Source of the DNA: Callorhinchus milii
Taxonomy: Eukaryota
Reading direction: 5' to 3'
Length of the DNA: 64,000 nt
NCBI RefSeq assembly: GCF_018977255.1
Contig: NW_024704742.1
Location: forward strand, 60,514,001 to 60,578,000
In this document: piece after piece, positions 14,862-58,358 of the stretch
How positions within the stretch are numbered: position 1 is the first letter of the stretch
Layout of the letters: every line of letters begins with the position of its first letter
Notes under the pieces: generated by a model
Seen by the model: only the letters and a program-made list of their open reading frames with translations
Told to the model about the DNA's origin: nothing
Databases searched by the model: none
Translations under genes and position numbers: made by a program

Positions 14862-17757
14862 TTGTAATAACTAAAAGACACATTACTAACCACAAGTGCC
14901 TACTATGGAATGAAAGGTATAATAATAATAATCCTTCCATTTGATATAGCATATTGTTGAGATATCTTAAGGTTCTTCACATGATATATTCTAAAGTGTA
15001 TTGTCTGTGTATTCAGTAGGTGAATATGGTAGTCAATTTGCACACACTAATGTCCCATAAACTGCTATGAAATGAATCTGGAGTGAAACTCCATTTTCTT
15101 TTCAAATATCTTTAACATCCACCTGAACAGGCAACCAAAATTTTAGTTTAATGTTGCATCCAAAAGATGGCACCTCCGACAATATAGTGTAACCTAGTCT
15201 AGACTGTGACCTCAAAGTCCTGAAAGAGGCTTGAACCCACACCTTCTTTCTCAAGACGAGAGTGCTACCAACTAAGCCAGGGTGTTACCTGTGTAATTTA
15301 AGTGGAGCCATACATATTTCCATATATCAAAAGTATAATGCATAACAAGTACTTTTATCAGATTAAAATCACTTTACTAAAGACCATTGGCTGAAGCAGT
15401 TAAATTAGCTGTTGCTGCTCACTTCTAAGCATGTGATTATAGAACAGCATCTGCAAATATGAAGCAGTAGGGAAAATGCACAGCACAGATTAGAAAATAG
15501 AAAATGCAGCAAATCTTTTCCGTTATTTTACATATTGGCAAGTGTCAAGCTCATTCAAGTCCTTTGACATGAAAGGATCTCTATAAATGTAAAATTGGAT
15601 ATTATGGCAACACATATTAAAGACTGGGGAATGATTTTGCTATTTTTAATGTACATTTCAGAATCACAAGAGAATTCCCCAGGTGAACTTATACAGCAAA
15701 CATACTGGCAGCAGAAAGAAAGTTTTCTTTCATTAGTAGTAAAGCTCACAGGCAACTAATACATGTAATTTAGCTCAAGTTATTTCAGGCAATGATCTCT
15801 TTGTAACTCCAAATAGTTTGCTGCAGCCTCTGGTAAAATAGTTCCTTTGTAGATGAATAGAGAACGCTGTGCCAAAAGATTGCTGGAAGATATGGGCTAT
15901 CTAAAATCAATTTGTCTGACTCCAGGAGATAGGCCATTGTAACTTAACACATTGCACTTAATGGAGATCTTGGACACATGGGTTTCACCAGGATGTCAAT
16001 TGCTCTGCTCGTATCTACTGATTAGATGCTAAAATGCTATTTGGTTGACATTCACAAATGGCACTTAAAAGTCTTTTAAACTGTCGGTACCTCAAATTAC
16101 TATACAATATAATTTTCAAATTGAATGGAAACCAATACATTTTACATTTAAGATTTCTTTATCCTACTGTACCACAGGATACTAATGATATCCACAAGTC
16201 AAAGTTTCATGGGAAGATTTAAAAGTTGCTTAACATGCATGACACTTGGTGGACATTGTCAGCCTGTTGGGTGCTATCAGTTTGTTTCTCTCATTTTACT
16301 AGAGCTACATATTAGTTTTCCAATATTTGTATGTACTTTCGTTGTTAACCAGTTTATTAGAAGTTCCTCCAATGTATGTAAAGGTATCCCTGTTGATTAC
16401 TGGACTGGATAGTTTAAAATTCATATTACTGTATTATTTCATACTAATATCAGAATTGTTGTATTTTTTAAAAAATTGTGTTTAAAATATATGAATCCAC
16501 ACAATAGATAAATGGAATTAACGACCAAAGCGTTGGTGGAGGCAGAATGTGAAAACAAATTCTAAAGGAAATTACATAGTTACAGTACTTGGTGAACAAT
16601 TTTGTTGAGGGTTATGAGAGAAATAACGCAGCATTATTTAGTTTTTTTAAATGTATTTAGTTCTAATATTTTTTAACTTTGGCGACAATAGATCATAATG
16701 GTCTTTTCTGGACCTCTACATTCCTATGTTGCTGTGATTAACTAAAATAATACATCTATATTGTATAATGTACACCTTTGAAAACTGCTTAAAAATAAAC
16801 AGTTCAACAAAATTCATTAACTGAGTACTTTCTTACCTTAGTTGAAGTATGGGAAATATATATTTTAATTATTAAGGAAGCTCTTTCAATATATTTAGCA
16901 TTTTCAGTTCAGTCATTTTATTTGTGATGCACAATTATCAATATTTCAGAAATAAAGAATTTTCGATGAACAGTTTAGGCAATTCAGTGACTTGAATAAT
17001 TGCGATGTAAAAATTCATGACAAGGTACTGCAATCAAACACATCCTTATTTAATTTAAAATCTAAAATGTCTTGAATCAGTTTTAAACTGCTGTATTAGA
17101 CAATGGTCTTTCTGTAGAGCGTAAACAGCTGTCACTCTTGCCGACCATTAAGAGACAATTATAACATTACATTTTCTGTGCCAAAGGCTACAAGCCTGAG
17201 GGAGAGGAATAGACGTTTTAAAACCTTTGTGATATTGAAGTACCATTAGCCGGTGGTATGAACCATTTTGGATGTCCCTTGAGAAATGCTCTGTATGGCA
17301 ATAAACTCCAGTATGACTTGTTAAACGAGACTTCCCATTTTCCAAAGACATTTTTGTTGGGCCGCCGGATGTCTGACACATGCGGAAACCCATCAATAGG
17401 GTTGAAAGTATCCAAGCCAGACTGAAAAATGAAACCCACGCGGAAACCGATTGCCGTGTTCAACGATTTCCGAACTGAACCGAGATTTCCACTTTACGCT
17501 TTGGCAAATCCCCTGAATTGGAAGGGAATGCGCGCGGCCCCGGAAGCGCGTGTCCTGCTTCTCTAATCCAGGAGTGCATCGGTTGCCGGCGGGAAAGAGC
17601 TGCGGCTTGGGGACCGCGGCAAGTGCATCGGGGAGAAAACCTGTGAGTGTAACCCGACTAAAGCCGCGTAGCTCCCCAGTGATGTCAGTGTCTGACAAAC
17701 TTCCTCACTGCGTGTCACTACAGCGAGGACCACCGCACCCTCCGGGGCTTGGGTTTG

Positions 17758-20700
17758 CAGTGGGGGGGGGAGGGGCTGATCACACAGTGGGGGGAGGGGG
17801 AGGGGCTGATCACACAGTGGGGGGGAGGGGCTGATCACACAGTGGGGGGAGGGGAGGGGCTGATCACACAGTGGGGGAGGGAGGGGGAGGGGCTGATCAC
17901 ACAGTGGGGGGGGAGGGGCTGAGCACACAGTGGGGGGGAGGGGGAGGGGCTGAGCACACAGTGGGGGGGGGGAGGGGGAGGGGCTGATCACACAGTGGGG
18001 GGAGGGGGAGGGGGAGGGGCTGAGCACACAGTGGGGGGAGGGGAGGGGGAGGGGCTGATCACACAGTGGGGGGAGGGGCTGAGCACACAGTGGGGGGAGG
18101 GGGAGGGGCTGAGCACACAGTGGGGGGAGGGGCTGAGCACACAGTGGGGGGAGGGGCTGAGCACACAGTGGGGGGAGGGGCTGAGCACACAGTGGGGGGG
18201 GAGGGGCTGAGCACACAGTGGGGGGAGGGGGAGGGAGGGGCTGATCACACAGTGGGGGGAGGGGGAGGGGCTGAGCACACAGTGGGGGGAGGGGGAGGGG
18301 CTGATCACACAGTGGGGGGAGGGGGAGGGGCTGAGCACACAGTGGGGGGAGGGGGAGGGGCTGAGCACACAGTGGGGGGGAGGGGGAGGGGCTGAGCACA
18401 CAGTGGGGGGGAGGGGGAGGGGCTGAGCACACAGTGGGGGGAGGGGGAGGTGGAGGGGCTGATCACACAGTGGGGGGGAGGGGGAGGGGCTGAGCACACA
18501 GTGGGGGGGAGGGGGAGGGGCTGAGCACACAGTGGGGGGGAGGGGGAGGGGCTGAGCACACAGTGGGGGGAGGGGGAGGTGGAGGGGCTGAGCACACAGT
18601 GGGGGGGAGGGGAGGGGCTGATCACACAGTGGGGGGGAGGGGGAGGGGCTGATCACACAGTGGGGGGAGGGGGAGGGGCTGATCACACAGTGGGGGGAGG
18701 GGGAGGGGCTGAGCACACAGTGGGGGGAGGGGGAGGGGCTGATCACACAGTGGGGGGAGGGGGAGGGGGAGGGGCTGATCACACAGTGGGGGGGGAGGGG
18801 GAGGGGCTGAGCACACAGTGGGGGGGAGGGGGAGGGGCTGAGCACACAGTGGGGGGAGGGGGAGGGGCTGATCACACAGTGGGGGGAGGGGGAGGGGCTG
18901 AGCACACAGTGGGGGGAGGGGGAGGGGGAGGGGCTGAGCACACAGTGGGGGGAGGGGAGGGGCTGATCACACAGTGGGGGGAGGGGGGAGGGGCTGAGCA
19001 CACAGTGGGGGGAGGGGGAGGGGCTGAGCACACAGTGGGGGGAGGGGCTGATCACACAGTGGGGGGAGGGGGGGAGGGGGAGGGGGCTGATCACACAGTG
19101 GGGGGGAGGGGCTGATCACACAGTGGGGGGAGGGGGAGGGGGAGGGGGCTGATCACACAGTGGGGGGACGGGGGAGGGGGAGGGGCTGATCACACAGTGG
19201 GGGGAGGGGGAGGGGCTGAGCACACAGTGGGGGAGGGGGAGGGGCTGATCACACAGTGGGGGGACGGGGAGGGGAGGGGCTGATCACACAGTGGGGGGAG
19301 GGGGAGGGGGAGGGGCTGAGCACACAGTGGGGGGGAGGGGCTGATCACACAGTGGGGGGAGGGGGAGGGGCTGAGCACACAGTGGGGGGGAGGGGCTGAG
19401 CACACAGTGGGGGGGAGGGGGAGGGGGAGGGGCTGACCACACAGTGGGGGGAGGGGGAGGGGCTGAGCACACAGTGGAGGGGAGGGGGAGGGGCTGAGCA
19501 CAGTGGTGGGAGGGGCTAAGCACACAGTGGGGGGAGGGGGAGGGGCTGATCACACAGTGGGGGGAGGGGGAGGGGCTGAGCACACAGTGGGGGAGGGGGA
19601 GGGGCTGAGCACACAGTGGGGGGAGGGGCTGAGCACACAGTGGGGGGAGGGCTGAGCACACAGTGGGGGGAGGGGCTGAGCACACAGTGGGGGGAGGGCT
19701 GAGCACACAGTGGGGGGGAGGGGCTGAGCACACAGTGGGGGGGGAGGGGCTGAGCACACAGTGGGGGGAGGGGAGGGGCTGAGCACACAGTGGGGGGAGG
19801 GGGAGGGGCTGAGCACACAGTGGGGGGAGGGGAGGGGCTGAGCACACAGTGGGGGGAGGGGAGGGGCTGAGCACACAGTGGGGGGAGGGGGAGGGGCTGA
19901 TCACACAGTGGGGGGAGGGGGAGGGCTGAGCACACAGTGGGGGGAGGGGGAGGGGCTGAGTACACAGTGGGGGGGAGGGGGAGGGGCTGAGTACACAGTG
20001 GGGGGGGAGGGGCTGAGCACACAGTGGGGGGGGGAGGGGGAGGGGCTGATCACACAGTGGGGGGAGGGGGGAGGGGGAGGGGCTGAGCACACAGTGGGGG
20101 AGGGGCTGAGCACACAGTGGGGGAGGGGCTGATCACACAGTGGGGGGGAGGGGCTGAGCACACAGTGGGGGGAGGGGGAGGGGCTGATCACACAGTGGGG
20201 GGGAGGGGAGGGGCTGATCACACAGTGGGGGGAGGGGAGGGGAGGGGCTGAACACACAGTGGGGGGAGGGGGAGGGGCTGATCACACAGTGGGGGAGGGG
20301 GAGGGGGAGGGGCTGAGCACACAGTGGGGGAGGGGCTGATCACACAGTGGGGGGGAGGGGCTGAGCACACAGTGGGGGGGAGGGGGAGGGGGAGGGGCTG
20401 ATCACACAGTGGGGGGAGGGGGAGGGGCTGAGCACACAGTGGGGGGAGGGGGAGGGGCTGAGCACACAGTGGGGGGGAGGGGGAGGGCGAGCACACAGTG
20501 GGGGGGGGGGGGGGGGAGGGGCTGATCACACAGTGGGGGAGGGGGAGGGGGAGGGCTGAGCACACAGTGGGGGAGGGGAGGGGAGGGGCTGAGCACACAG
20601 TGGGGGGAGGGGAGGGGGAGGGGCTGAGCACACAGTGGGGGGAGGGGAGGGGGAGGGGCTGAGCACACAGTGGGGGAGGGGCTGAGCACACAGTGGGGGG

Positions 20701-20766
20701 AGGGGCTGAGCACACAGTGGGGGGGAGGGGGAGGGGCTGAGCACACAGTGGGGGGAGGGGGAGGGG
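17758..20766 (+). repeat. G-rich minisatellite (~3 kb) upstream of AGA
   Basis: Unit GGGGCTGA(G/T)CACACAGT + variable G-runs (G5-G9, AGGGG(G) x1-3). Unit ~25-42 bp; roughly 90-100 copies (estimated by eye). Confidence 0.98.
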
Positions 20767-20881
20767 TTTGGTATCGCTGCCGCTGTTGTGAGCTCAGGTC
20801 CTCGGCAGCACTGTAACAGCGGGACTGAGAGAGAGAGAGAGAGTACAGACACACACACACGGACACACGGACACACAGGCC

Positions 20882-21071
20882 ATGAGGCCGGGCCTGGGCC
20901 TGGGGCTCGGGCTGGGGTTGGGGCCGGGCCTGGGGCTGGGCCTGGGGCCGGGCCTGGGGCTCGGGCCGGGGCTCGGGCTCTGGGCGGCGCTGCTGCTCGG
21001 GCGCGGCTCCCGCTCTGCCCTCCTGCCGCTCGTCATCAACACCTGGAGCTTCAATACGGCAACTCAGCGAG
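20882..21071 (+). CDS. AGA: Aspartylglucosaminidase coding exon 1 (leader/signal peptide and start of alpha subunit)
   Basis: ATG at 20882 (ggccATG). Translates MRPGLGLG...WAALLLGRGSRSALLPLVINTWSFNTATQR; LPLVINTW matches the AGA N-terminal motif LPLVVNTW. Donor G|GTCAGT at 21072, phase 1. Confidence 0.92.
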
Positions 21072-21078
21072 GTCAGTG

Positions 21079-23145
21079 CCCCCCACACACCCTCACACAC
21101 ACACCCTCACACACACCCACACACACACCCCCACACACACCCACACACACACACACACCATACACCATACACACACACACACACACATACACCCACACAC
21201 TCACACACACACCCACACACACACCCACACACACACCCTCACACACACCCTCACACACCCCTCACACCCCCCCCACACACCCCCCCACACACCATACACC
21301 ATACACACACCCACACACCCTCACACACACACACCATACACACCCCCCCCACACACCATACACCATACACACACCCACACACACACACACACACAACCTC
21401 ACACACACACCCTCACACACCCTCACACACACACTCACACACACACCCACACACACACACTCACACACACACCCACACACACACACTCACACACACACCC
21501 ACACACCACACACACACACCCTCACACACACACTCACACACACACTCACACACACACACACACTCACACACACACTCACACACACACCCTCACACACACA
21601 CCCTCACACACACACCCTCACACACACACTCACACACACACCCACACACACACACTCACACACACCACCCTCACACACACACTCACACACACACCCACAC
21701 ACACCCCCCCACACACCATACACCATACACACACCCACACACACACACACACTCACACACACACACCCTCACACACACACTCACACACACACCCACACAC
21801 ACACACACCATACACACCCCCCCACACACCATACACCATACACACACCCACACACACACCCTCACACACACACCCTCCACACCCTCACACACACACTCAC
21901 ACACACACCACACACACACACTCACACACACACACCCTCACACACACACCCTCACACACCCTCACACACACACTCCACACACACCCACACACACACACTC
22001 ACACACACACCCACACACTCACACACACACACCCTCACACACACACCCTCACACACACACCCTCACACACACACTCACACACACACACCCTCACACACAC
22101 ACCCTCACACACACCCCCCCACACACCATACACCATACACACACACACACCCTCACACACACACCCTCACACACACCCCCACACACACCATACACCATAC
22201 ACACACCCACACACACACATACACACCCTCACACACACATACACACACACCCTCACACACACACACCCACACACACACACTCACACACACCCACACACTC
22301 ACACACACACACCCTCACACACACACTCACACACACACTCACACACACACACCCACACACACACACTCACACACACACTCACACACACACCCTCACACAC
22401 ACACACTCACACACACACCCTCACACACACACCCACTCACACACACACCCACACACACACACTCACACACACACCCTCACACACACACTCACACACACAC
22501 CCACACACACCCCCCCACACACCATACACCATACACACACCCACACACACACACACACTCACACACACACACCCTCACACACACACTCACACACACACCC
22601 ACACACACACACACCATACACACCCCCCCACACACCATACACCATACACACACCCACACACACACCCTCACACACACACCCTCACACACCCTCACACACA
22701 CACTCACACACACACCCACACACACACACTCACACACACACACCCTCACACACACACCCTCACACACCCTCACACACACACTCACACACACACCCACACA
22801 CACACACTCACACACACACCCACACACTCACACACACACACCCTCACACACACACCCTCACACACACACCCTCACACACACACTCACACACACACACCCT
22901 CACACACACACCCTCACACACACCCCCCACACACCATACACCATACACACACACACACCCTCACACACACACCCTCACACACACCCCCCCACACACCATA
23001 CACCATACACACACCCACACACACACATACACACCCTCACACACACATACACACACACCCCTCACACACACACACACCCTCACACACACCCACACACACA
23101 GACCCTCACACCCCCCCCCACACACACACACACACACACACACAC
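21079..23145 (+). repeat. Compound (CA)n microsatellite, ~2 kb, start of AGA intron 1
   Basis: CA runs interrupted by CCCT, CT, CCC and a recurring CCCCCCACACACCATACACCATACAC marker. Essentially no G on the + strand. Confidence 0.98.
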
Positions 23146-23764
23146 GGAGGCTAATAATTGCTTCAAAAAATAAATAATAATAATAATTTGGTCACTTCAA
23201 TCCACAACTGTTTGTGGGACACTGATGTGCGCAATTGGCTGCTGCGTTTTGCCCACAAAATATACAGTCAATTCACTTTACAGTATATTCTGTGAAGCGC
23301 TGTAAGACGACTCAATAACGTGATAAGGTGTTGTATCGAATGCAAGGATTATCGTTGTTTTTATTATTATCAAAAGCCATTCCTTATAGGTGTAGAGGAG
23401 ATGTTCAAGCTGCATGCCATGTAGACGTTGACGCACAGCAACCCGTGACAAAAAGTTTCATGAACACGATGAAAGACATCTCCTATTATAGCTGCACACC
23501 TATGAATGTTACCTTAAAAAAGAACATAATTAATAATTAAATCCCTCTGCCTTTCCCCCTCCTTCGCCTCTTTTAGTTCACAACTAAAGACCTTCCTCAG
23601 CAAACTCCTGCCTCTCCCCGGCTCGGTGTCAGGCTCCACCAATGTTAATCTCTCTGAGACGCTGCCCCGAATGAATGGGTGCCATATAAATGCAAGTTGC
23701 CTCTCAGGGCTTTCTGACTTATTTCCTTGAGCCCTACAGTACATTAAAGGGACATTTAATGTGC

Positions 23765-23980: not shown

Positions 23981-26579
23981 AGCTTCAAGAGATACAATGT
24001 TGACCCCCAGAGCTGTGATTTGAATGAAATTGTGCAGTTCACACTTTCGTTCAAATCACCTTTAGCACGCACTCTCTCCTCACCTGAAAACAAAGCCACA
24101 TTACATTTTTTTTACCAGCAACCATTAAAAAAACAGACAGGTGGCCATCCTCGAGACATTGTTAATTGCAAGGAGGTGGTGTAGATTTCAAACAAAAGTT
24201 TTAGTGATGCTGGTTGCTGCGCTCAGTTCCTCCTTTTTTTTTATTTGGGAGAGTTGCGAAATTGAGAGATGTGTCAGTAGCAAGGAAATCCAGTACTGGA
24301 GATGGCATTCGTTGTCAGAGTGCCTGCCTTCAGGTTAGACGTTAAACCAAGGTCCCATCTGCCTGTTCAGGTGCACGTTAAAGATCCCATGGCATAAAAA
24401 CAGAAGGGAGCTCATCCAGCTGTGGCCACAATCCCCCCAAATAAAATTGGTCACTCACTCCATGGCCATCTGGAACATTACTGCGTAAAATGGCTGCCAC
24501 GTTCGGCTGCACATAGTTACACCACTCTACGGTATATCCTGCAAAGCGCTTTGAGGCAGCGCGGCAACATGATGAGGCGCTATACGAATTTGCAAGGATT
24601 ATTATCAGATTTAGAACAACTACAATTCTTTGCGCCTGTAAGACAAAAATCAGATGTGTTGATTGCTACTTGGTTCTTATACCACTTGTTTTTCAAGAGT
24701 TAAGTAGTTAATGGAAATTTTGCAAGTGGGATTTGTGATATACTGTGCAAACACGTAATAGTGAGTAGATGGTAATTCAGTCTGTGGGCACTAAACCTTT
24801 TACCAACGTTCTCTTGGTCAAGGTTGCTTCTTGTGAGTGAATGCAGCAATTTCTGCTAATAGGTGACTTAATTTACTGCCAGATTATCTCTTTGCAGGTA
24901 ATTTGTCACATTTTTTTCACACTGATGAGGAGGTTTCGAAACTGAATGATTAAAGGGGATGAAAGTTAGTAACTCAGTGCGATAAATTAACCAGAACTGC
25001 TGGAATTGTATATTTTTTTCACGTGAGATTGTAGTAGCGAAACATCACTATTGCCTCAACAACCAATGACAGTCTTAGCCCCAGATGTGTGAAGATCGTG
25101 TTGACGATTCTAAAAGTCAGGATTTTCGGAAACAGCCCCGGTCAAGGTGACAAATGACATTCTGCCCATCAGTGACCAGGGCTCCTCTGTCTCCTTAGGA
25201 AGGAGGAGATAGCGGGAGCCCACATCACCATATCAAACTATCCACTCCCTCTGCTCAGCAGATGTCCCTTACCCGGACCACCTCACCATCAGCGGATGGG
25301 CCTTCAGCCTCTCTGTCCCCACCCTTTGGAACTCCATCCCACATTCCCTTTGCCTGTTCCCTCCTTTGGCTCCTTCAAGGTACGCCTCAAAAACCCTCCT
25401 TCGACTCTGCCTTCGGCCACCCTCCAACCCTTTCTGCCCTCCACCTTTCCTGATGCCAACCATCCCCCCCCCCCCCCCCCCCGCTCGGGTCCTAATCCCT
25501 GACCTTTAAGCACCTTAGGACGTCCTCCTGATGTGAAAGGTACTTTACAAATGTAATATTGTATTGTATCTTAGCTATTTGTAATCATTAAACTCATATT
25601 TTTGGTGGGAGGCCTGGGAGTATTATTCCATGCATATGTTTCAATACTCTTCACGGAGTCCTGTCTTCTGTAACTTAGTTATAACAACAACAACAACAAA
25701 ATTACATTTGTATGCAATGCCAATGAGTACAGCGAATGTGTCACGTGCATCGCTGTGAAAATACAACCCATGCTGCATTCTTGCACAAATGATTTGGACA
25801 ATCAGTGCAGATTAAATCATTTATTTGATGGAGTAGGGAGTAACAACAACTACATCAATTTGCAATTATACATCGCCCTCACGCCTTCAGCCACTATATC
25901 CCGTAACTTTGGAAAAATCCCTGCATCAATCCTCCACCTTGCCCCTCTGCCCGTCTTTAGATCACACCTCAAAACGTTCCTCGTCTATGGTTACCTCCCC
26001 TTTCTCCCAGGTTCGGCTTCGTGCCACAACATTATTAATCTCTCTGAGACTCTACCTCATGTGTAGGGCTCTCTATAAATGCAAGTTGTTGTCCTTTGCA
26101 AGTTGCAAGTGCTTTGAGATACCCTCCCAACGTGTAAAGGCTCTTTATAAATGAAAACTATTGTGTATAAATTATGTTTTGTTATATTTTACGCTCTGCT
26201 ACTGAAAATGTATGAACGTTTGTTATTGTTAAATGTTTCATATTACAGCCCCTGCAAACTCTGACGATAAATATCCATATCTAGTGTCAAGCAGTCTGTC
26301 ACTGCTACATCCTGCAGCATGATATTCTAGAAATGGGAGACCTCTTTTTGAGTTCAAGCCATAAAATGGATTATTTTGCTTTCACATATAATTGATGAAG
26401 TGAATGTTTTCAAAATACTGTATTGTGTTGCTGTTTAAAAAAAGCAGATGCCTCTCACACATCCTCAAGTAAATGTTCAAGCTTGTGCTTCCGATGAATG
26501 AATCGGTTTAAACCTTTTTTTGGAAGTGATGTGTGTCATCGCCAGTTATTAAATTGAACGTCTTTTGTGTTTTTTTTAG

Positions 26580-26733
26580 CCTGGAGCACCCTTCAGTCTG
26601 GAGGCTCAGTATTAGATGCCGTGGAAAAAGGTTGTGCTCAGTGTGAAGTTGACCAGTGTGATGGCAGCGTGGGATATGGGGGAAGCCCAGATGAACATGG
26701 AGAGACGAGTTTGGATGCTATGATTATGAATGG
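26580..26733 (+). CDS. AGA: AGA coding exon 2
   Basis: tttttttag| acceptor. (A)[50 protein letters not shown](G). Donor GG|GTAGGC. 154 bp. Confidence 0.97.
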
Positions 26734-27280: not shown

Positions 27281-27393
27281 CAACACAATGGAAGTTGGGG
27301 CAGTTGCAGACCTTAGAAGAATCAAAAGTGCAATCAGTGTGGCTCGAGCCGTGATGGAACACACCAGACATACACTGTTAGTGGGAGAATCAG
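27281..27393 (+). CDS. AGA: AGA coding exon 3
   Basis: ccttcag| acceptor. [37 protein letters not shown]. Donor G|GTAACC. 113 bp. Confidence 0.97.
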
Positions 27394-40476: not shown

Positions 40477-40790
40477 GGAGTCCTGTAGCTCAGTGGTTAG
40501 AACACTCGCTTTGCAAGTGAGAGACCTGAGTTCAATTCCAGGCAGGGCGAAACCTTGGGCAAGTTTCCTTACTCCACACGCCTAATAATATTCCCATCAA
40601 AACCAAAAACAATAATAAATTGGTCATTTTCAATCTACGACTGTTTGTGGGACATTGCTGTGTGCAATTGGCTGCCGCGTTCGTCCACAAATACAGTCAA
40701 TTCACTTTACAGTGTGTTCTGTGAAGCGCTTTGGGACGTCCTCCCGACGTGAAAAGCGCTATTTCAAATGCAAGGATTATTATTATTTAT
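40477..40790 (+). mobile_element. Full-length tRNA-derived SINE
   Basis: Pol III A box TAGCTCAGTGG, B box GTTCAATTCC, conserved core TGTGGGACATTGCTGTGTGCAATTGGCTGCCGCG and (TTA)n tail. Confidence 0.95.
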
Positions 40791-41267
40791 TAATAATAAT
40801 CCTTGCATTTGATAAAGCGCCTTATCATGTCTTTGAGACATCTCAAAGCGCTTCACAGAATATACTGTAAAGGTGAATTGGCTGCATATTTTGTGGGTGA
40901 AATGTGAGAAGTCTCTAGTCAGTACGTTTTCGTTCACCTGTAGTCACTACACTGAACAGTATATTCTGTGAAGTGCTTTAAGACATCCTCCCAATGTGAA
41001 ATATGCTATATCAAATCTAAGGGTTATTATTATTATTATGTGTACCAGGGGGAGCCATTCTGCTTACAAACTGACAGCACTACCTATTCATTTTTTAAAA
41101 TCAATGAAAAATCTCCAATAAGTTGTATTAAATGTCCTGGAGGTCAAAAAAACATTCATTCTAATTTGGAACCATTAGAAAATAAGAAAAAGACTATTAA
41201 CGAGCTGGTTTGAAAAACATTTATACAGATACTTGTTATGTAATCCTTGAATTTTTTTTTCTTTTAG

Positions 41268-41368
41268 GTGCTGCATGCAGTAAAACTCCAGGATTTAATC
41301 AATTTCACTTCATGGTTCAGAGTCCTGCACTAAATGAAGCTTCAGAACATATGGTTGACTGCATTTGA
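41268..41368 (+). CDS. AGA: AGA coding exon 9 (terminal, TGA stop)
   Basis: ttttcttttag| acceptor. (G)AACSKTPGFNQFHFMVQSPALNEASEHMVDCI*. The nine exons sum to 1107 nt = 368 aa + stop, with all phases compatible. Confidence 0.97.
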
Positions 41369-42049: not shown

Positions 42050-42636
42050 GGTTTGATTCCCGGCATGCGAAGCCTTGGGCAAATTTCCTTACTCCACACG
42101 CCTAATAATAATCCCTCATGAAAAAAATAATAAATTGGTCACTTCAATCCACGACTGTTTGTGGGACATTGCTGTGTGCAATTGGCTGCCGCGTTTCACC
42201 CACAAATATAGTCAATTCACTTTACAGTATATTCTGGAGTCCTGTAGCTCAGTGGTTAGAGCACTCAGTGGTTAGAGCACTCGCTTTGCAAGCGAGAGAT
42301 CTGAGTTCAATTCCAGGCACAGGGCGAAACCTTAGGCAAGTTTCTTACTCCACACAGAGCCTAATAATAATCCCTCCAAAACCCAAAACAATAATAAATT
42401 GGTCATTTTCAATCTACGACTGTTTGTGGGACATTGCTGTGCGCAATTGGCTGCCGCGTTCCCCCATAAATATACAGTCAATTCACTTTACAGTGTGTTC
42501 TGTGAAGCGCTTTGGGACGTCCTGCTGACGTGAAAAGCGCTATATCAAATGCAAGGATTATTATTATTATGTGAAGCGCTTTGAGACGTCTGGAAGACAT
42601 GAAAAACGCTATATCAAATGCAAAGATTATTATTAT
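42050..42636 (+). mobile_element. Nested SINEs: young full-length copy (42236-42570) inserted inside an older copy
   Basis: The older copy breaks at ...tatattct| and resumes at |gtgaagcgctttgagac... after the inner copy's (TTA)n tail. Confidence 0.9.
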
Positions 42637-44650: not shown

Positions 44651-44693
44651 AGATTTGTGATCAATATGTCTTAAGATAGTAAATAAGATTGTC

Positions 44694-44990
44694 GTGGTCT
44701 GTAGCTCAGTGGTTAGAGCACTTGCCTTGCAAGCGAGAGACCTGGGTTCAATTCCTGGCAGGGCGAAACCTTGGGCAAGTTTCCTTACTCCACACGCCTG
44801 ATAATAATCCCTCAAAAAAAAATTGGTCACTTCAATCCACGGCTGTTTGTGGAACACTGTTGTGCGCAATTGGCTGCCACATTTCACCCACAAATATAGT
44901 CAATTCACTTTACAGTATCTACTGTGAAGTGTTTTGGGACATCTAGAAGACGTGAAAAGCTCTATGTCAAATGCAAGGATTATTATTATT
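44694..44990 (+). mobile_element. Full-length tRNA-derived SINE
   Basis: Head TGTAGCTCAGTGGTTAGAGCAC, B box, core and tail as in the other copies. Confidence 0.93.
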
Positions 44991-46422: not shown

Positions 46423-46569
46423 TTACACCCACTTGAAGAAGTTACACTGTTTGTTCATTCCTTCAGAACAAACATAAAAGTTACGTCCATTATTTGGCCC
46501 AAGCTTCAGAACTGTCCTCATAATGCAGCGTTTTCCATGATTACAGAATGGAAAATCCAAGTCAGTCCA
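46423..46569 (-). CDS. NEIL3: NEIL3 coding exon 10 (GRF zinc finger 2, TAA stop)
   Basis: WTDLDFPFCNHGKRCIMRTVLKLGPNNGRNFYVCSEGMNKQCNFFKWV*. The ten exons sum to 1773 nt = 590 aa + stop. Confidence 0.97.
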   Translation of the reverse strand, partial: WTDLDFPFCNHGKRCIMRTVLKLGPNNGRNFYVCSEGMNKQCNFFKWV

Positions 46570-49515: not shown

Positions 49516-49685
49516 TGACAGGCCTTGGTGACAAGCAGGCTTCACATGACTTGACTGAAGCCATGTTTACCAATGTGCAAAGTGCACATGTCCATTCTTC
49601 TTCCTCTTTTTTGGCGATGTTGTCAGCAGAATAGCTTCCAGTACTAGACACCCATCCTAATAGACTATTTCTTCTAGGCAAACTG
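49516..49685 (-). CDS. NEIL3: NEIL3 coding exon 7 (RanBP2/NZF zinc finger)
   Basis: SLPRRNSLLGWVSSTGSYSADNIAKKEEEEWTCALCTLVNMASVKSCEACLSPRPV, W-x-C-x2-C-x3-N-x6-C-x2-C pattern. Tandem CAGCAG acceptor. Donor A|GTAAGT. Confidence 0.96.
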
Positions 49686-50392: not shown

Positions 50393-50559
50393 CTGATATC
50401 AACCTGCGACAGATCCTCCTTCTGACAAAATGAGCAGAAATAAGTCATCCGGCTGTTCTCACCTAGGCGGCAGACAGTTATTTGACCTTTACACTGTCCA
50501 CATGTAGATCGCTTGTAAACTTTGTAATGCTTATACAAGGCTGATCCTGTCTTACGACA
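50393..50559 (-). CDS. NEIL3: NEIL3 coding exon 6 (FPG-type zinc finger)
   Basis: CRKTGSALYKHYKVYKRSTCGQCKGQITVCRLGENSRMTYFCSFCQKEDLSQVDI. 167 bp, canonical sites. Confidence 0.97.
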
Positions 50560-51286
50560 CTAAAAAGTGGAAGAAACAACCAATATTCAATTTATAAATT
50601 AACATTATACATGCATATTGGATTTAGGCAATAAACATATATCTAGTTCCAAGATATAAAACAGGAAAAATATTACAACTCTAAGGCAGCTACACATATA
50701 TACATTACATTATTTTTGTCTCAAGACTACAATATCTGAACAATTCTACCGTTTCTAGTTACTCATGAGTCATGACCTGGAATTTCATACAATATTTACC
50801 ACATATGTACATGTGCCATAGCTACTTTTAATACAACATACTGAGCTGTTCAGATAGCCCTCTGGGGGAGGAGCTCTGGGTTGTTTAGGCCAGTGAGATG
50901 CTGAATCTCGGTAGGAGAGTTGAGCAAATGCAAATTAATGATTGGTTTTGCCAACAATCTCAACATACTCCTTGAGGTGCACAGGAATAATGCTAAAGAG
51001 TTTCCCTTCAGATAATATTAAGGCAAAAAGCACATTGTAAGTTGTCCGAGGATGATATTGTGCATCTCCCAAGTGTAAGTTACACATCCAACATATGCCA
51101 CAGAATATTCATGTCCTTTTTATGCGCAATTAATAGGTAACAATAATATTAAGCGACTCATGGGTATACATTGAGTTCTATAATTATCAGAGCAAAGGGC
51201 ATTCAAACATCAACAATAGTGAGCTATTCATTTATAAACCTCGATTAGCTTATTTTTGCAAATATTTTAAAGAAATGTACTCGTAC

Positions 51287-51361
51287 CTTATAAAAGAGGA
51301 TTGTGAAATCGCGAGTCATTTTGACAATATGATGTATTTGTTCAGCAGATAACTGGCAGAT
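51287..51361 (-). CDS. NEIL3: NEIL3 coding exon 5
   Basis: ICQLSAEQIHHIVKMTRDFTILFYK. ttgcag| acceptor and |GTACGA donor. 75 bp. Confidence 0.96.
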
Positions 51362-52023
51362 CTGCAACATCAAGAACATGCTACTTTGAAATAATGCTTT
51401 CCCTACCAACAGCTTGACTGGTAATGAAAAGGGACTTCAAACATGGTCTCCTGGGGTTAAACTGACTCCAGGGTGATAAATTGGCAATAAAATCTCAGAA
51501 TTGGGTGAATCTTCAGTGGTGGTCATGGTAGTCTCATTCCTCACCCAGGCAGGATTGCAATATTCCAAGCATTGCTGATGAAAGCCCAGAACATCTTGGC
51601 TCATCAGCGGGTCATGGAGAGACAGGCTGTGTACTGGGATTATTTCCATTTGGCTCCTGTTAACCCCTCCCTAATTAGTAGGTTGGTCCTACCTGGACAA
51701 GCATCAGGAAGATCGCCAGACATGCTTTTAATGACAAGTATACAATCTGAGCTGGTTAAATTTCAGAAGCACCTCAACCCACATTCTAAAGTCTTGGCTC
51801 TCGCAACCAGCACCTAATACGGAAGCATGGTGGGTTCCTCCAGGGAGAGAATGCGTACTCCATTCCAGATGCTGAGAAATTTCAATGCATAATTGGCATT
51901 TATATGAGGAAATCTAGTCTGAATACTCTTAAGGGTGATAATAGGTTTCCGTATGTATCAGTCACCCACTAAAAAATATTAAACACAGCGCACAGTTCAG
52001 TGTGAAACACAGGAATGATTTAC

Positions 52024-52237
52024 CTTAACAGCTGGATGGAAGCCACTGTCAAACAAGGATTCGTTTTTTATGATGTTTCCTACTCCAGGTAATACAGTTT
52101 GGTCCAAGAGCACATCACAGAGCATGCGTGTACAATGCTGCCCCAATTCATTCTCTGCTCGGGAGAAACTGAACTTTGGAGAACAAATGTCTAGTTCTTC
52201 CATTAATTTCACCTTGCGCTTACACTCCAAGGCACTC
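52024..52237 (-). CDS. NEIL3: NEIL3 coding exon 4 (H2TH motif)
   Basis: SALECKRKVKLMEELDICSPKFSFSRAENELGQHCTRMLCDVLLDQTVLPGVGNIIKNESLFDSGFHPAVK. Canonical AG/GT. 214 bp. Confidence 0.98.
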
Positions 52238-53281
52238 CTAATAGGCAATAGGAAATGGTACAATTGATCGGAACAGATACACATCTCGTGTTTTACTATC
52301 TCTACGTTTTTCCCTATTTCAACAAAAATTCACACTTATATAATCTATTGTTTTTCGCACTGGGAGAACATCTCAAAGCACTTTAGAAATTCAGTGAGAG
52401 CGAGGAGCTGAAAGTGTAGTCAAAGAAGTAGATCTTCACACGAGATTTGAAAGTAGAGAGAAAGGGATAAGGCAGAATTTTGGGAGGAGTTCTAGAGAGA
52501 TGGGCCAAAGTAACTGAAGGTTCAACTGCCAATTGTGCTCTGCACCCACTTGTCATAAAAACCAGATACCGCAATTGTAATTCAGAACTAATATTATCCA
52601 AACTGGATATGAGTGGGATATAGTTCCTTAAAGTTGAATTATCTGCTTTTAATTGAAAACAGAAACACATTTGTTAATCTATAACAGATATATATGTGCA
52701 TCACTCCAATATTTATCCATTTAAATAGCATTACTGAAATTAGTGTCAGGTTCAATGAAGTTGTTTCTACTAATACAACCAACACAAAAAGTGATGCCTC
52801 AATGGTACCTATTTTATTAATTGAAAGAACCCAGTACTTGTAAATGCATTCAAGAGTTAAGCAACCTACAGAAATTTTTCAAAAATATGACTAAATTAAC
52901 AGGTACAAAGTATTTAGTTAGTACATTTTTTCATTTAAAAAATCCACACTTGAGGTTTTTAAAATTAGAATCATAGAATTAATGAGAACTCAGTGAGCTG
53001 GACTGAAAACTGACATGGCAAATGAGACTAAAGGTGAATCATAAATATGGCAACCTGTTGGGGGAGGAGGGGAGAACAAGAATAGTGGAGTCCAGGGATC
53101 CACATTCTGGATCCCTACTCTAAAAAAGGAGGGAGAGAAGAGGTATTGGGGTTTCTATGATGGAACCAATTCTAAAGCCACTCAACTGGCAGATCCATAT
53201 GAATCCAAGGGATTGAAATTGGAGGTAGAATTGTGTAAGATAAACTTGAACAGGTAGTGGTCCCAGGTGGATAAATGTTAT

Positions 53282-53655
53282 CCGGTCTGCTCCACGTCCC
53301 CCGCCCCAACCGCCCTACCATCGGTGGTCGGGCCTTCAGCCTCTCAGCCCCCAGGCTCTGGAACTCCATCCCCCAGTGCCTTCGCCGCTTCCTCCCATTC
53401 CTCCTTCAAGGCCGGTCTCAAAACCTTTCTCTTTGACCGTGCCTTCAGCTCCCTCTCGACTCTCTTCCTCCTCCTCGCTCCCTCCCTTCCCTCCCTCACC
53501 CTGACCATTTCCCCTCCTCTCTCCCTCCCTTCCCTCCCCTCACCCTGACCATTTCCCCCCTGCTCGGGTCATGACCCAACTGTGCAGCGCCTTGGGACGT
53601 CCTCCTGACGTGAAAGGCGCTCTATAAATGGAATCTTGTTGTTGTTGTTGTTGTT
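53282..53655 (+). mobile_element. L2 3' end with (TTG)n tail (similar fragments at ~4735-4935, ~25260-25570, ~11075-11320 (-))
   Basis: GGGCCTTCAGC...CTCTGGAACTCC...CCTTCAAG...CTTGGGACGTCCTCCTGACGTGAAAGGCGCTCTATAAATG + (TTG)n. Confidence 0.88.
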
Positions 53656-53671
53656 ATGAAACGTATCAGTG

Positions 53672-54000
53672 CTCCTGTAGCTCAGTGGTTAGAGCACTCG
53701 CTTTGCAAGCGAGAGACCTGAGTTCAATTCCAGGCAGAGGGCGAAACCTTGGGCAAGTTTCCTTACTCCACACAGAGCCTAATAATAATCCCTCCAAAAA
53801 AAACCAAAACAATAATAAATTGGTCATTTTCAATCTACGACTGTTTGTGGGACACTGCTGTGCGCAATTGGCTGCCGCGTTCGCCCACAAATATACAGTC
53901 AATTCACTTTACAGTTGTTCTGTGAAGCGCTTTGGGATGTCCTCTCGACGTGAAAAGCGCTATATCAAATGCAAGGATTATTATTATTATTATTATTATT
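53672..54000 (+). mobile_element. Full-length tRNA-derived SINE in NEIL3 intron 3
   Basis: Head with perfect anticodon-like arm CTCGC-TTTGCAA-GCGAG and long (TTA)n tail. Confidence 0.95.
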
Positions 54001-54190
54001 TGTACAATAAGCTGTGTGTATATAGTTAGAGGGTAGATAACATAACAGTGGCTATGTCTTTCATTAACCTTACTAGACAATTAATCCTACTTACTTAATA
54101 GCCTAGTGTTTCTTGCAGCATAACTCTGCAAAATAAAACGAAAAACTAAAATAGAAATCAAGTGTAAATGTTATTTGTACAATTCCTCAC

Positions 54191-54325
54191 CTGATTTCTA
54201 CTGTGGAGTCAAAAAAGCAAATCAGATCATTGCTGAGCTGGATCTCCAAACCAGCTGCTGCTCCACTTCTGTTGGTTTTCTCAGATGGATTGATACGCAT
54301 GGAGCCATTCATGCCAAAATGTATC
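54191..54325 (-). CDS. NEIL3: NEIL3 coding exon 3
   Basis: IHFGMNGSMRINPSEKTNRSGAAAGLEIQLSNDLICFFDSTVEI(R). ttccag| acceptor, AG|GTGAGG donor. 135 bp. Confidence 0.97.
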
Positions 54326-54703
54326 CTGGAATCGTACATACATGTTCAGTAAGACTTCAATAGTCCTTGTGGAACAAAGATGCATCATAACATTTCCTAG
54401 ATATGTTTGCAGATGAACACCATTATAATTACTTATAAATAGCTAAGGGAGCATCAACTCTTCACATCTTCCTTTCCCAAATCCGGTAAGGAGCTCACTT
54501 CAACTAATAAAGCAGGTAGCAAAACAGAGTAAAGGTGAACATTAAATAGAACAATAAGCAAGAAAAAGATAATTATTCTGCCATTATATAATCACTAGAA
54601 AGACTATCTGAAATAGTATGTGCAGTTTTGTGACTATGTCTTCACAAGGATGCTAAAACATTGGTGTGGAATCAACAAGAAGGAAAAGTATCAAGAACCA
54701 TAC

Positions 54704-54831
54704 CTTAAGGCTGTTGGGCCAAAATAGAGAAAGAGTTCTTTGCCTAATGTCTCCACATCAGTGTAGACCTTTCCTTGGAGCAGACTGATGTCACTCCGAT
54801 TGGAAACCTTCTGTCCATTACTTTGATTACA
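54704..54831 (-). CDS. NEIL3: NEIL3 coding exon 2
   Basis: ttttttcag| acceptor. CNQSNGQKVSNRSDISLLQGKVYTDVETLGKELFLYFGPTAL(R), with the catalytic Lys in ETLGKEL. Donor AG|GTATGG. Confidence 0.93.
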
Positions 54832-55987
54832 CTGAAAAAAGTCAACATCACAGTCATTTGCATTTTGTTTTGTGCAAAGGAGCAATTGATAATCTGTAAG
54901 AACTCTTTCTGAGCTGTACTATGCATCCAAATACAAAACGTAAGTGCCACGATAGAGATCTTTCAACTCAGTTTTACCGATTTTCACCATATATCCTTGA
55001 ATTTTTTTTTCTGAAAGTTAATCTGTAAAAAAAAATGTATTTCTCTGAAAAAAAAACTGGATCGTCCAGCTTTTTCTGCTTTGGGGATGCATGTATCCCA
55101 TAGCCTTGTCAATACGCACATTCGAGTTTACATTAAGAAACAACAGTAAAAAAGGTGGGCTCAAGAGTTTACCTGTGTATACTTTCAAGACACGTTCTTG
55201 GGTCACCAAAATGTGATTTGGCGTCAGAATCGCTTGAATTTGCTGCTCGTGGAATCACTGTACCAGGGAATCTTCCCACTCACCTTCCACCCTGCAAGCA
55301 AAGCCCTAACGCGTAGGGAGGTCCGTACTGGACACCCAGCGGGAAAGCTGGTCAGGCAGTGCTCTCAATGGTAAGCTATGCAGTTTTGCAGTTTTAGCTG
55401 ATTAAATTCTAGCAGTACCCCAACACACACTCTGCGCCCCCGAGCCTTGGCTCCCGCTCACCTGCGTCTAATACTTCCCGAATTTCAGAGTCCAGGGAGA
55501 GAGAAAATACACGATACCGATAAACATCTCTCGAATTTCCATGGGTGGGTGGGGATGCAGAGAATTCTCAGTTGGGTTTGGATACTCTCAAGCAAAGGTG
55601 ATGAGTTTTCACGTGTATTAGACACCCGACTGACCCCCAAGAAATCAACACCGAAAGGTCTCAAAGCGCTTCACAGGATTTACTGATAAAGCTTAATCTA
55701 CGACTGTTTGTGAGACATTGCTGTGTGCAATTGGCTGCCGCGTTCGCCCACAAATATACAGTCAATTCACTTTACAGTGTGTTCTGTGAAGCGCTTTGGG
55801 ACGTCCTCCCGACGTGAAAAGCGCTATATCAAATGCAAGGATTATTATTATTATTATTATTAAGCGAATGCAGCAGCCAATCTGCATATAGCAATTTCCC
55901 ACAAACAGCCACCAAGTAAATGACCAAACTTATCAGAGGGACTGTTGGCCACAGACACCGCGAGAAACTCCTTCCCCTTCTCGAACA

Positions 55988-56059
55988 GTGTGTGTGTGTT
56001 TGTGTGTGTATATGTGTATCTGTGTGTGTATCTGTATCAGTATGTGCGTATCTGTGTGC
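55988..56059 (+). repeat. Short (TG)n/TATC microsatellite in NEIL3 intron 1
   Basis: Same TGTGTATC motif as the large tract at 57425-58358. Confidence 0.85.
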
Positions 56060-56122
56060 ACATCCCCCGTGAGGCCCGTCAGCCCGTGAGGTGGGACCGA
56101 GTCCCACAGCCGTGACACTCAC

Positions 56123-56227
56123 CGCCTGCCCTCCCGCGCGGTGTGTCACACGGAGCACCGTCTGTCCGCCATCCACTCCGCTTCTCAGCGCCGCTCCGTA
56201 TAGCGCACAGTCCGCGCCCTCCACCAT
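56123..56227 (-). CDS. NEIL3: Endonuclease VIII-like 3 coding exon 1
   Basis: ATG at 56227 (-). MVEGADCALYGAALRSGVDGGQTVLRVTHRAGGQA resembles NEIL3 MVEGPGCTLNG..R....GQ.V..V. Donor |GTGAGT, phase 0. Confidence 0.9.
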
Positions 56228-56243
56228 AGCTCTCCCTCTGCTC

Positions 56244-56278
56244 TCCTTCCCGCGCTGCTTCAAACCCGCCCCGCCCAC
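56244..56278 (-). promoter_or_regulatory. NEIL3 core promoter: CHR element (TTTGAA) with GC-box/CDE-like and E2F-like flanks
   Basis: Minus strand reads GTGGGCGGGGCGGG-TTTGAA-GCAGCGCGGGAAGG. TTTGAA at 56259-56264 lies ~32 nt upstream of the ATG. Confidence 0.7.
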
Positions 56279-57331
56279 GGCACGTCACAGCCCCGCCCAC
56301 GGCACGTCATCACACCGTCACAGCCCCGCACACACCCACCGTCACAGCCACACCCACCGTCACAGCCCCGCCCACCGTCACAGCCCCGCCCACGCCACCG
56401 TCACAGCCCCGCCCACACCCACCGCCACAGCCCCGCCCACACCCACCGCCACAGCCCCGCCCACACCCACCGTCACAGCCCCGCCCACACCCACCGCCAC
56501 AGCCCCGCCCACACCTACCGTCACAGCCCCGCCCACACCCACCGCCACAGCCCCGCCCACCGTCACAGCCCCGCCCACGCCACCGTCACAGCCCCGCCCA
56601 CACCCACCGTCACAGCCCCGCACACACCCACCGCCACAGCCACACCCACCGTCACAGCCACACCACCGTCACAGCCCCGCCCACACCCACCGCCACAGCC
56701 CGCCCACACCCACCGCCACAGCCCCGCCCACACCCACCGTCACAGCCCCGCCCACCGTCACAGCCCCGCCCACACCTACCGTCACAGCCCCGCCCACACC
56801 CACCGTCACAGCCCCGCACACACCCACCGCCACAGCCACACCCACCGTCACAGCCCGCCCACACCACCGCCACAGCCCCGCCCACACCCACCGCCACAGC
56901 CCCGCCCACACCCACCGCCACAGCCCCGCACACACCACCGTCACAGCCCCCCCCGCACAGCCCCCCACACCTACCGTCACAGCCCCGCCCACACCCACCG
57001 TCACAGCCCCGCACACACCCACCGTCACAGCCCCGCCCACGCCACCGTCACAGCCCCGCCCACACCACCGTCACAGCCCCGCCCACACCCACCGTCACAG
57101 CCCCGCACACACCCACCGCCACAGCCACACCCACCGTCACAGCCCCGCCCACACCCACCGCCACAGCCCCGCCCACACCCACCGCCACAGCCCCGCCCAC
57201 ACCTACCGTCACAGCCCCGCCCACACACACCGTCACAGCCCCGCCCACACCTACCGTCACAGCCCCGCCCACACACACCGTCACAGCCCCGCCCACACAC
57301 ACCGTCACAGCCCCGCCCACACACACTGTCA
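56265..57331 (-). repeat. GC-rich ~24 bp minisatellite upstream of NEIL3
   Basis: + strand unit CCG(T/C)CACAGCCCCGCCCACACCCA with shorter variants; roughly 45 copies (estimate). Confidence 0.98.
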
Positions 57332-57355
57332 CGCAGAAGCCTCAGGAGCGCGCGA

Positions 57356-57364
57356 CACTTCCGG
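57356..57364. promoter_or_regulatory. ETS/GABP-type motif in a short CpG-rich unique island
   Basis: CACTTCCGG (CCGGAAGTG on -) preceded by GCGCGCGA, between the minisatellite and the (TG)n tract. Confidence 0.5.
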
Positions 57365-57424
57365 GTCCTACACGTTCAACTGTCAGAGAAACTGCCGCTC
57401 GTCACCCGACTGCCAGTCACCGAC

Positions 57425-57554
57425 TGTGTGTATCTGTACCTGTGTGTGTGTGTACCTGTGTGTGTGTGTATCTGTGTGTGTGTCTGTGTATGTATCTGTG
57501 TGTGTGTGTATCTGTGTGTGTGTATCTGTGTGTGTGTGTATGTGTGTGTGTGTA

Positions 57555-57627
<73 letters not shown>

Positions 57628-57658
57628 CTGTGTGTGTGTGTATCTGTGTGTGTGTGTA

Positions 57659-57695
<37 letters not shown>

Positions 57696-57789
57696 CTGTG
57701 TGTGTGTGTGTATCTGTGTGTGTGTGTATCTGTGTGTGTGTATCTGTGTGTGTATGTGTGTGTGTATCTGTGTGTGTTGTGTGTGTGTA

Positions 57790-57822
<33 letters not shown>

Positions 57823-57896
57823 CTGTGTGTGTGTGTATCTGTGTGTGTGTATGTGTGTGTGTATGTGTGTGTGTGTGTGTGTGTGTATCTGTGTGT

Positions 57897-57932
<36 letters not shown>

Positions 57933-58188
57933 CTGTGTGTGTGTGTGTGTGTATGTGTGTGTGTGTGTATATCTCTGTGTGTGTGTATCTGTGTGGTGTG
58001 TGTGTATCTGTGTGGTGTGTGTATCTGTGTGTGTGCATCTGTGTGTGGTGTGTGTGTGCATCTGTGTGTGTGTGTGTGTGTGTGTGTATCTGTGTGTGGT
58101 GTGTGTGTGTATCTGTGTGTGTGTGTGTGTGTATCTGTGTGTGTGTATCTGTGTGTGTGTGTATGTGTGTGTGTGTATCTGTGTGTGT

Positions 58189-58254
<66 letters not shown>

Positions 58255-58278
58255 CTGTGTGTGTGTGTATCTGTGTGT

Positions 58279-58314
<36 letters not shown>

Positions 58315-58358
58315 CTGTATCTGTGTGTGTGTGTATCTGTGTGTGTGTGTGTGTGTGT
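57425..58358 (+). repeat. Compound (TG)n microsatellite with TATC/TA interruptions
   Basis: Direct reading: (TG)nTATC blocks over ~930 bp. Confidence 0.98.

Follow-up and report, generated by a model that had tools for sequence, protein, structure and literature searches.

Why should two neighboring genes of a cartilaginous fish both begin among kilobases of tandem repeats? The question is raised by a 64,000-nucleotide stretch of Callorhinchus milii DNA (contig NW_024704742.1; hereafter the window) that contains AGA on the forward strand, with its ATG at 20882 and its last coding exon at approximately 41267-41365, and NEIL3 on the reverse strand, with its ATG at 56227 and its last coding exon ending near 46426; the two genes therefore converge. 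The gene assignments made in a preliminary description of the sequence are correct: the AGA and NEIL3 exons match C. milii proteins at 96-100% wherever an alignment stays within an exon, other chondrichthyan proteins match them much less well, and the window gives Pfam matches to Asparaginase_2, H2TH, and GRF zinc finger. For evidence, the analysis uses the window itself, relatives at the protein level, contigs from four sequencing runs, and published papers, and it concerns two promoters (n = 2). The repeat-rich 5' ends of AGA and NEIL3 are a real, non-random, and unusually large variant of promoter tandem repeats, rather than a designed architecture shared by the two genes.

According to the preliminary description, nothing comparable to these arrays occurs elsewhere in the window, and the census agrees. 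When tandem arrays were called over the window with Tandem Repeats Finder (TRF), four were long (3.0, 2.1, 1.0, and 0.9 kb); the longest of the remainder spans 136 bp (42501-42636), and a lower threshold adds only short rows. All four arrays above 136 bp fall in the two CpG islands at the gene starts, and the other 57 kb of sequence has none. Each array is confined to one place in the window, and a comparison with other genomes found no look-alike stretch in those compared. One explanation is coincidence: in a repeat-rich genome long arrays may be common anywhere, and two may have fallen at these promoters. Tandem-repeat content does vary by chromosome in chondrichthyans, according to the available portions of two genome papers (PMC10620051, PMC12952989), and the case for non-random placement is post hoc with n = 2. 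However, in 400,000 random placements two clusters touched two different ATGs in 0.8% of trials (P = 0.008), and four independent arrays came to lie within 1.3 kb of an ATG in 0.004% (P = 4e-5), figures that belong to a post hoc test with a simple null. With every long array in two islands at P = 0.008 or lower, and 57 kb elsewhere free of them, chance placement appears improbable.

With the arrays masked, 11 island-like segments are recognized in the window, and the two longest, 17341-23257 (850 bp of unique DNA) and 55918-58765 (910 bp of unique DNA), are those of AGA and NEIL3. Each contains exon 1, and both have a GC content of 0.58, with CpG observed-to-expected (o/e) ratios of 0.79 and 0.84, respectively. 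Because each 5' end collapses to a CpG island of 850-910 bp once masked, the arrays grew inside normal CpG-island promoters. This supports the earlier suggestion of a local origin within the two promoter islands, the only places in the window where such arrays occur. The further claim that these promoters are built largely from repeats is correct by length, with arrays making up 86% (AGA) and 68% (NEIL3) of the island span. It does not extend to the core elements: the ETS-type motifs, the CHR (cell cycle genes homology region) of NEIL3, and exon 1 of each gene lie in unique DNA.

At AGA, the upstream half of the island (17341-17761, forward strand) is unique DNA with a CpG o/e of 0.96 and carries CCGGAAG at 17540-17546, the only forward-strand copy in the window, which we take to be an ETS-type (GABPA/ELK) motif. 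It is followed by the G-rich minisatellite (17762-20766, forward strand), for which TRF gives a 30-bp unit in 100.5 copies, or approximately 100 units of 23-39 bp with a consensus of 30 bp. The unit is composed of G-run/GA boxes and a CTGA(G/T)CACACAGTG core. This array has 3 CpG and 37 canonical G-quadruplex (G4) motifs on the sense strand, and with it in place 3 kb separates one half of the island from the other. Exon 1 (20767-21071, forward strand) follows, with short GA and CA repeats in the 5' untranslated region (UTR), the ATG at 20882, and a donor after 21071 that is spliced to exon 2 at 26580. Intron 1 begins GTCAGTGC and then enters a C/CA run, in agreement with the earlier placement of a CA tract 8 nt into the intron. 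The interrupted CA-based array occupies 21084-23145 (2,062 bp, forward strand); its longest pure run is 13 CA, its interruptions are CCCT/CCAT, and it holds a near-exact tandem duplication of approximately 810 bp (21480-22290 versus 22292-23099; 792 matches, 8 mismatches, and 11 small gaps).

Within exon 1, a 100-bp coding hexamer repeat (GGCCTG/GGGCTG-like; 20886-20985, forward strand) specifies a Gly-Leu/Pro repeat in the AGA signal peptide that is absent from the 13 other vertebrate AGA N-termini compared. The signal peptide consists largely of this repeat, encoded by a G-rich hexamer array. A word search for other annotated versions of this N-terminus gave none; a HMMER search gave 9 matches, and the 5 examined are unrelated Gly-Leu low-complexity proteins. 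The UniRef model of C. milii AGA (P0121) has a false N-terminus: its first 33 residues come from an intron-1 frame (26151-26249), and the true exon 1 (20882-21071) is missing. The flanking repeats may have hidden the true exon from the annotation.

Contigs from sequencing runs bear directly on this exon. Twenty-four runs are listed, all as contigs; 13 contain part of the stretch around AGA exon 1, and no run is registered as RNA. Four runs were compared, one from each of four studies. In three of them (X2, X5, and X7) a contig leaves exon 1 at 21071 and passes directly into exon 2, of which it has the opening 30 letters (26580 onward). This spliced junction confirms the existence of the exon that lies between the arrays, and it demonstrates that X2, X5, and X7 contain spliced RNA, a status that rests on the junction. 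In run X1 the unique part of AGA exon 1 is without cover, which proves nothing. One X7 contig over the 5' UTR stops 4 nt into the G-rich array; contigs cannot show starts, and this end is a weak hint that fits a start at the array edge and equally a block to reverse transcription at the first G-run. One X7 contig has 6 gap letters over the part of the 5' UTR with the short GA and CA repeats, which hints at length variation of those short repeats only. No listed piece spans even the 317-bp exon stretch, let alone any array.

A donor-like CTGTGAGT lies at 17641-17648, between the ETS motif and the AGA array, and could close a non-coding upstream exon. Splicing of such an exon (donor at 17641) across the array is unsupported: no corresponding loose end is present among the ends shown, beside which there are 22 further ends, and an X7 contig that bears on this candidate is unspliced across 20767-20867.

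At NEIL3, read in the direction of the gene (reverse strand), the first element is an interrupted (CA)n-GATA array (57441-58358; 918 bp) that reads TG on the forward strand and CA on the NEIL3 strand. Its longest pure run is 29 CA, its interruptions are GATA, and it adjoins a long interspersed nuclear element (LINE) remnant (reverse transcriptase domain 58998-59876, forward strand). A unique CpG-rich spacer of 108 bp (57333-57440) bears CCGGAAGTG at 57364-57356 and leads to the G-rich minisatellite (56313-57332), a 24-bp unit in 43.4 copies by TRF, or approximately 44 units. This array contains 30 GGGCGGGG GC boxes, 30 TGACG, 20 GGGTGTGG, and 86 CpG, motifs that presumably correspond to Sp/KLF and cAMP response element (CRE) sites. 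It has no canonical G4 motif by strict pattern, although its G4Hunter score exceeds 1.5. Blocks of approximately 196 bp repeat within it at a higher order (187 matches, 2 mismatches). At its gene-proximal end the array grades into two 22-bp units (TGACGT plus a GC box; 56268-56309, reverse strand) related to the array unit, which are likely a native promoter module and are followed by TTTGAA (56259-56264, reverse strand). Coding exon 1 occupies 56123-56227 (reverse strand), and a short interrupted CA/GATA tract (55988-56058; approximately 70 bp, longest pure run 5 CA) lies in intron 1, where the preliminary description had placed it.

Both CA tracts that flank NEIL3 exon 1 are interrupted by GATA, versus CCCT/CCAT in the AGA tract, and a CA/GATA tract may have been copied across the NEIL3 promoter. 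Just upstream of the longer tract, 58360-61560 contains C-rich LINE remnants and, at approximately 59740-60050, an inserted short interspersed nuclear element (SINE); one segment of this region is internally repeated and one piece is inverted.

The TTTGAA of NEIL3 is the CHR consensus, a hexamer with 82 occurrences in the window. Upstream of it, GGCGG motifs are found at distances of 1 and 6 bases, versus a spacing of 4 for the optional cell cycle-dependent element (CDE). Human NEIL3 belongs to a set of late cell-cycle genes whose CHR is conserved, and for 95% of the set the CHR is near the transcription start site (TSS), as given in the available text of PMC4176359 (see also PMC4705690). Because the putative CHR is 31 nt before the ATG, and CHRs lie close to the TSS, transcription of NEIL3 likely starts downstream of the G-rich array.

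It had been proposed that the two promoters share one architecture. Parts of the proposal are accurate: both minisatellites are G-rich on the sense strand, and CCGGAAG precedes each of them, occurring once per strand in the window (17540, forward; 57364-57356, reverse). The expectation for this motif is approximately 1 per strand over the window and 0.11 in 1.1 kb of unique island DNA, and its position fits an ordinary island motif. Other parts do not survive. The longest word common to the two G-rich units is 7 bases, and the GGGGCTG that had been noted in both is at chance level: in 20,000 trials, shuffled units shared a word of at least 7 bases in approximately 40% (both shuffled) to 56% (one shuffled). 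GGGGCTG was rejected as a shared functional core on account of this chance-level sharing, and the array units of AGA and NEIL3 are unrelated beyond chance. The two G-rich arrays are not of the same kind, one having 3 CpG and 37 canonical G4 motifs versus 86 CpG and none in the other, and unit length across them is irregular (14-39 bp). The layouts are not parallel, with the long CA array in intron 1 of AGA versus upstream of the ETS motif in NEIL3. Finally, the short pure runs, regular interruptions, and higher-order blocks of the CA arrays are not those of the simple (CA)n microsatellites they had been called.

What process, then, could have placed unrelated arrays in two promoters of ordinary construction? 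The explanation favored here, with about an even chance of being right, is that they are selectively neutral variable number tandem repeats (VNTRs), for which nearby promoter sequence served as the template and which grew by unequal exchange because the islands are prone to recombination. Each 5' end would have started as an ordinary vertebrate CpG-island promoter of approximately 0.9 kb. Locus-specific repeats would then have been born from the promoter's own sequence, as suggested by the unrelated units of arrays that lie inside the islands; the NEIL3 unit grades into the native TGACGT/GC-box module beside the CHR. Growth appears to have gone beyond unit-by-unit slippage because blocks of approximately 200 and 810 bp are duplicated, and it may have proceeded by unequal crossover or gene conversion. 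The recombination-type expansion put forward earlier is consistent with these block duplications. Minisatellites mutate by germline recombination, and promoters would be the site of growth because in C. milii, much as in PRDM9-poor lineages, meiotic breaks may target promoter-like DNA that is unmethylated. Such breaks would also account for the fast, GC-leaning exon 1 of NEIL3 and for the AGA signal-peptide repeat. The arrays themselves would be by-products, tolerated since the core promoter and exon 1 remain in unique DNA, and effects on expression would be secondary.

Great array length may also arise during assembly, if errors of long-read consensus or overlap made repeats that are really short appear long. 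The two CA blocks of approximately 810 bp differ mainly by 1-base gaps, and the G-run lengths of the AGA array vary as homopolymer errors would. However, the G-rich arrays carry structured, recurring true variants (G/T in AGA; A/G, T/A/G, and 18/24-bp units in NEIL3, polarized at one end), and the UniRef model of AGA lacks the real exon 1, as would be expected if real flanking repeats had hidden it. It is quite unlikely that the arrays owe their length to such errors; partial inflation, for example a false 810-bp duplication, is more likely than a wholesale artifact.

Repeats could also have grown without meiotic recombination, by transcription- or replication-driven instability in which G-rich non-template strands form R-loops or G4 structures, forks stall, and repair expands the repeats. 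The sense-strand G-richness of both minisatellites and the 37 canonical G4 motifs of the AGA array are in keeping with this, as is the G-rich coding-strand bias of human promoter microsatellites reported in the accessible text of PMC3566118. The ETS motif upstream of each array could support an upstream start; ATG is absent inside the AGA array, only one (17682) lies between the motif and the start codon, and AGA RNA extends to the array edge. The preliminary description had invoked the R-loop route, which is weakened because it needs transcription through the G-rich arrays, and both are probably upstream of the main start site. The position of the NEIL3 CHR suggests as much, and so does the end, 4 nt into the array, of the sole contig over the AGA 5' UTR, a weak indication that a G4 block to reverse transcription would explain equally. 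In addition, the NEIL3 array, which sits upstream of the CHR, has no canonical G4 motif, and in the CA arrays it is C that the sense strand is rich in, with the NEIL3 array of this type lying upstream of everything. A C-rich sense strand is the wrong polarity for stable R-loops. It seems rather unlikely that instability of this type was the main cause.

The motif content of the arrays raises the alternative that they are selected homotypic enhancer modules, kept since multimerized Sp/KLF, CRE-half, or GA-box sites, together with an intronic CA splicing enhancer, raise or tune expression. CA repeats just 3' of a 5' splice site can act as hnRNP L enhancers, and the NEIL3 array is rich in GC boxes, TGACG, and GGGTGTGG. 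Human promoter VNTRs with factor sites correlate with expression, as described in the available text of PMC8096271. However, copying of promoter DNA yields such motif content automatically, the units are unrelated between AGA and NEIL3, and unit length varies from 14 to 39 bp. No conservation could be demonstrated. Selection for enhancer function has a low probability as the reason for the arrays.

Recombination at the promoters would also explain fast change in neighboring sequence, and the first exon of NEIL3 has changed rapidly. Callorhinchus differs at 10 of 24 conserved positions in exon 1 versus 34 of 284 in eight other exons (exon 5 left out; Fisher p = 5.6e-4), positions being those on which 7 elasmobranchs and 8 non-bird outgroups agree. 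This test replaced an earlier one with a bird-dominated outgroup (6 of 20 changed), since birds share some of the same changes. Among 26 vertebrate proteins the exon-1 excess is strongest in Callorhinchus (9 of 21 versus 12 of 171, p = 5e-5; next 5 of 22 versus 8 of 173), with one shark and one bird also at p < 0.05 and with species inside the reference groups biased towards low counts. At third codon positions, NEIL3 exon 1 has a GC content of 0.71 and AGA exon 1 one of 0.92, the latter inflated by the repeat, versus 0.21-0.49 in other exons. The NEIL3 N-terminus reads MVEGADC, versus MVEGPGC in 24 of 25 other vertebrate proteins compared (one bird has MVEGPCC). The NEIL3 changes T8A, N10Y, and I14L are also found in birds, a lineage without PRDM9, and the overlap is possibly convergent GC-driven change.

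CpG o/e is near 1 in the unique island flanks, and the NEIL3 array has 30 TGACG, 1 TGACA, and no TGATG, a scarcity of decay products that would fit a germline without methylation at this site. According to the available part of PMC5437953, TSSs that are expressed in the elephant shark are hypomethylated. From CpG content and this paper we infer an unmethylated germline state, at which recombination would be the driver of neutral array growth. Islands of this unmethylated kind are foci of recombination and of GC-biased conversion in dogs and many mammals (accessible text of PMC4350167 and PMC11161765). The PRDM9 of C. milii has no detectable SSXRD and its zinc fingers are not fast-evolving, and C. 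milii is the sole species in which testis expression was not detected, as stated in the available portions of PMC5519329.

Several points weigh against this explanation. It is based on two promoters only. With almost no CpG of their own, the CA arrays and the G-rich array of AGA dilute the island, and the 810-bp duplication could be an assembly error. The absence of CpG decay in the NEIL3 array can also mean recent homogenization. The G/C lean of the NEIL3 exon-1 changes (approximately 7:2 versus 14:18, p = 0.13) is non-significant, and relaxed selection on this exon would also explain its fast change. SINE copies near the promoters have no extra GC shift or CpG retention (7 young copies), and 33 SINE copies give no clear trend with distance. 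PRDM9 of C. milii has also been counted as complete on the basis of KRAB and SET (PMC8892340, in the text available).

How do these arrays compare with known systems? In human, promoters and CpG islands hold an excess of tandem repeats (accessible text of PMC3566118 and PMC8096271); examples are the VNTRs with Sp1 sites at XRCC5 and TPMT and a VNTR upstream of CSTB (PMC8096271, same portion). Human promoter VNTRs have locus-specific units of at least 7 bp, lie within 1 kb of the gene start, are enriched in CpG islands, and often contain factor sites (PMC8096271, as far as available). In C. milii, head-to-tail locus-specific units (30 bp x 100 and 24 bp x 44) lie inside CpG islands at the gene start, and by unit type and position the AGA and NEIL3 arrays likely belong to the same class. 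Unlike the human examples, they measure 0.9-3.0 kb, occur at two of two promoters in the window with two arrays each, and make up 68-86% of the island span. Human promoter microsatellites are alike in that their density peaks near the TSS, they are associated with CpG islands and G4, and motifs of 100% G/C tend to have their G on the coding strand. The human coding strand is enriched in AC upstream and in GT downstream (PMC3566118, text available), whereas the C. milii sense strand carries CA on both sides, upstream in NEIL3 and downstream in AGA and in NEIL3 intron 1, in tracts that are compound and up to 2 kb long. Promoter VNTRs are well known, and it is the scale that is unusual; the differences are size, two arrays per promoter, and CA in place of GT downstream on the sense strand.

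The PRDM9-independent CpG-island hotspots of dogs and other vertebrates, as described in the available text of PMC4350167, PMC11161765, and PMC5519329, have faster, GC-leaning substitution, and NEIL3 exon 1 shows the faster rate. In those systems a substitution bias is reported, versus kilobase repeat growth in C. milii, whose PRDM9 status is disputed. The missing AGA exon 1 of the UniRef model resembles the loss of promoters and first exons of high GC content from older assemblies that is described in PMC9516821 (in part), a paper that stresses GC content and repeats in general and in whose main text the word tandem is absent. No description of kilobase promoter arrays in chimaeras was found in the literature searched, most subscription papers being outside its reach. 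The available portions of PMC12952989 and PMC10620051 relate tandem-repeat content in chondrichthyan genomes to chromosome size and contain no kilobase promoter arrays, those of PMC3832898 and PMC3466250 contain nothing on promoter arrays, and the preprint 10.64898/2026.09.07.749791 does not mention cartilaginous fish.

It is possible, though doubtful, that the pattern extends well beyond AGA and NEIL3: in Callorhinchus, and perhaps in holocephalans, meiotic recombination may have been fixed on CpG-island promoters for so long that a large share of these have grown several-fold through private arrays of kilobase size, which extend into 5' UTRs and signal peptides and accelerate the evolution of first-exon protein sequence. 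If so, hotspots independent of PRDM9 in the earliest-branching jawed vertebrates could be read, as from a fossil map, in their promoter arrays, and false N-termini would be common among the gene models of the elephant shark. A genome-wide occurrence would provide a test, from sequence alone, of whether recombination in cartilaginous fish targets promoters, with a bearing on the disputed state of PRDM9. It would also mean that first exons and N-termini are mis-annotated, as for AGA, in a reference species for early vertebrate evolution, and that 3 kb of repeat, CpG-free and G4-rich, can be tolerated by a vertebrate promoter even at the center of its island. The arrays may mark where C. milii recombines its chromosomes, and the value of the finding lies in the inexpensive genome-wide test that it suggests.

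Elsewhere in the window, a 510-bp GC-rich patch in a NEIL3 intron (53248-53757) carries a short TCCC-type repeat (53465-53565) and is the third most array-like GC-rich site, behind the two promoters. Rfam gives six tRNA-like matches, none of them inside the arrays (7935-8006, 40479-40550, 42261-42319, 44695-44766, 53671-53742, and 59739-59810). Each adjoins a copy of a SINE present approximately 40 times in the window, and the six are probably SINE heads rather than tRNA genes.

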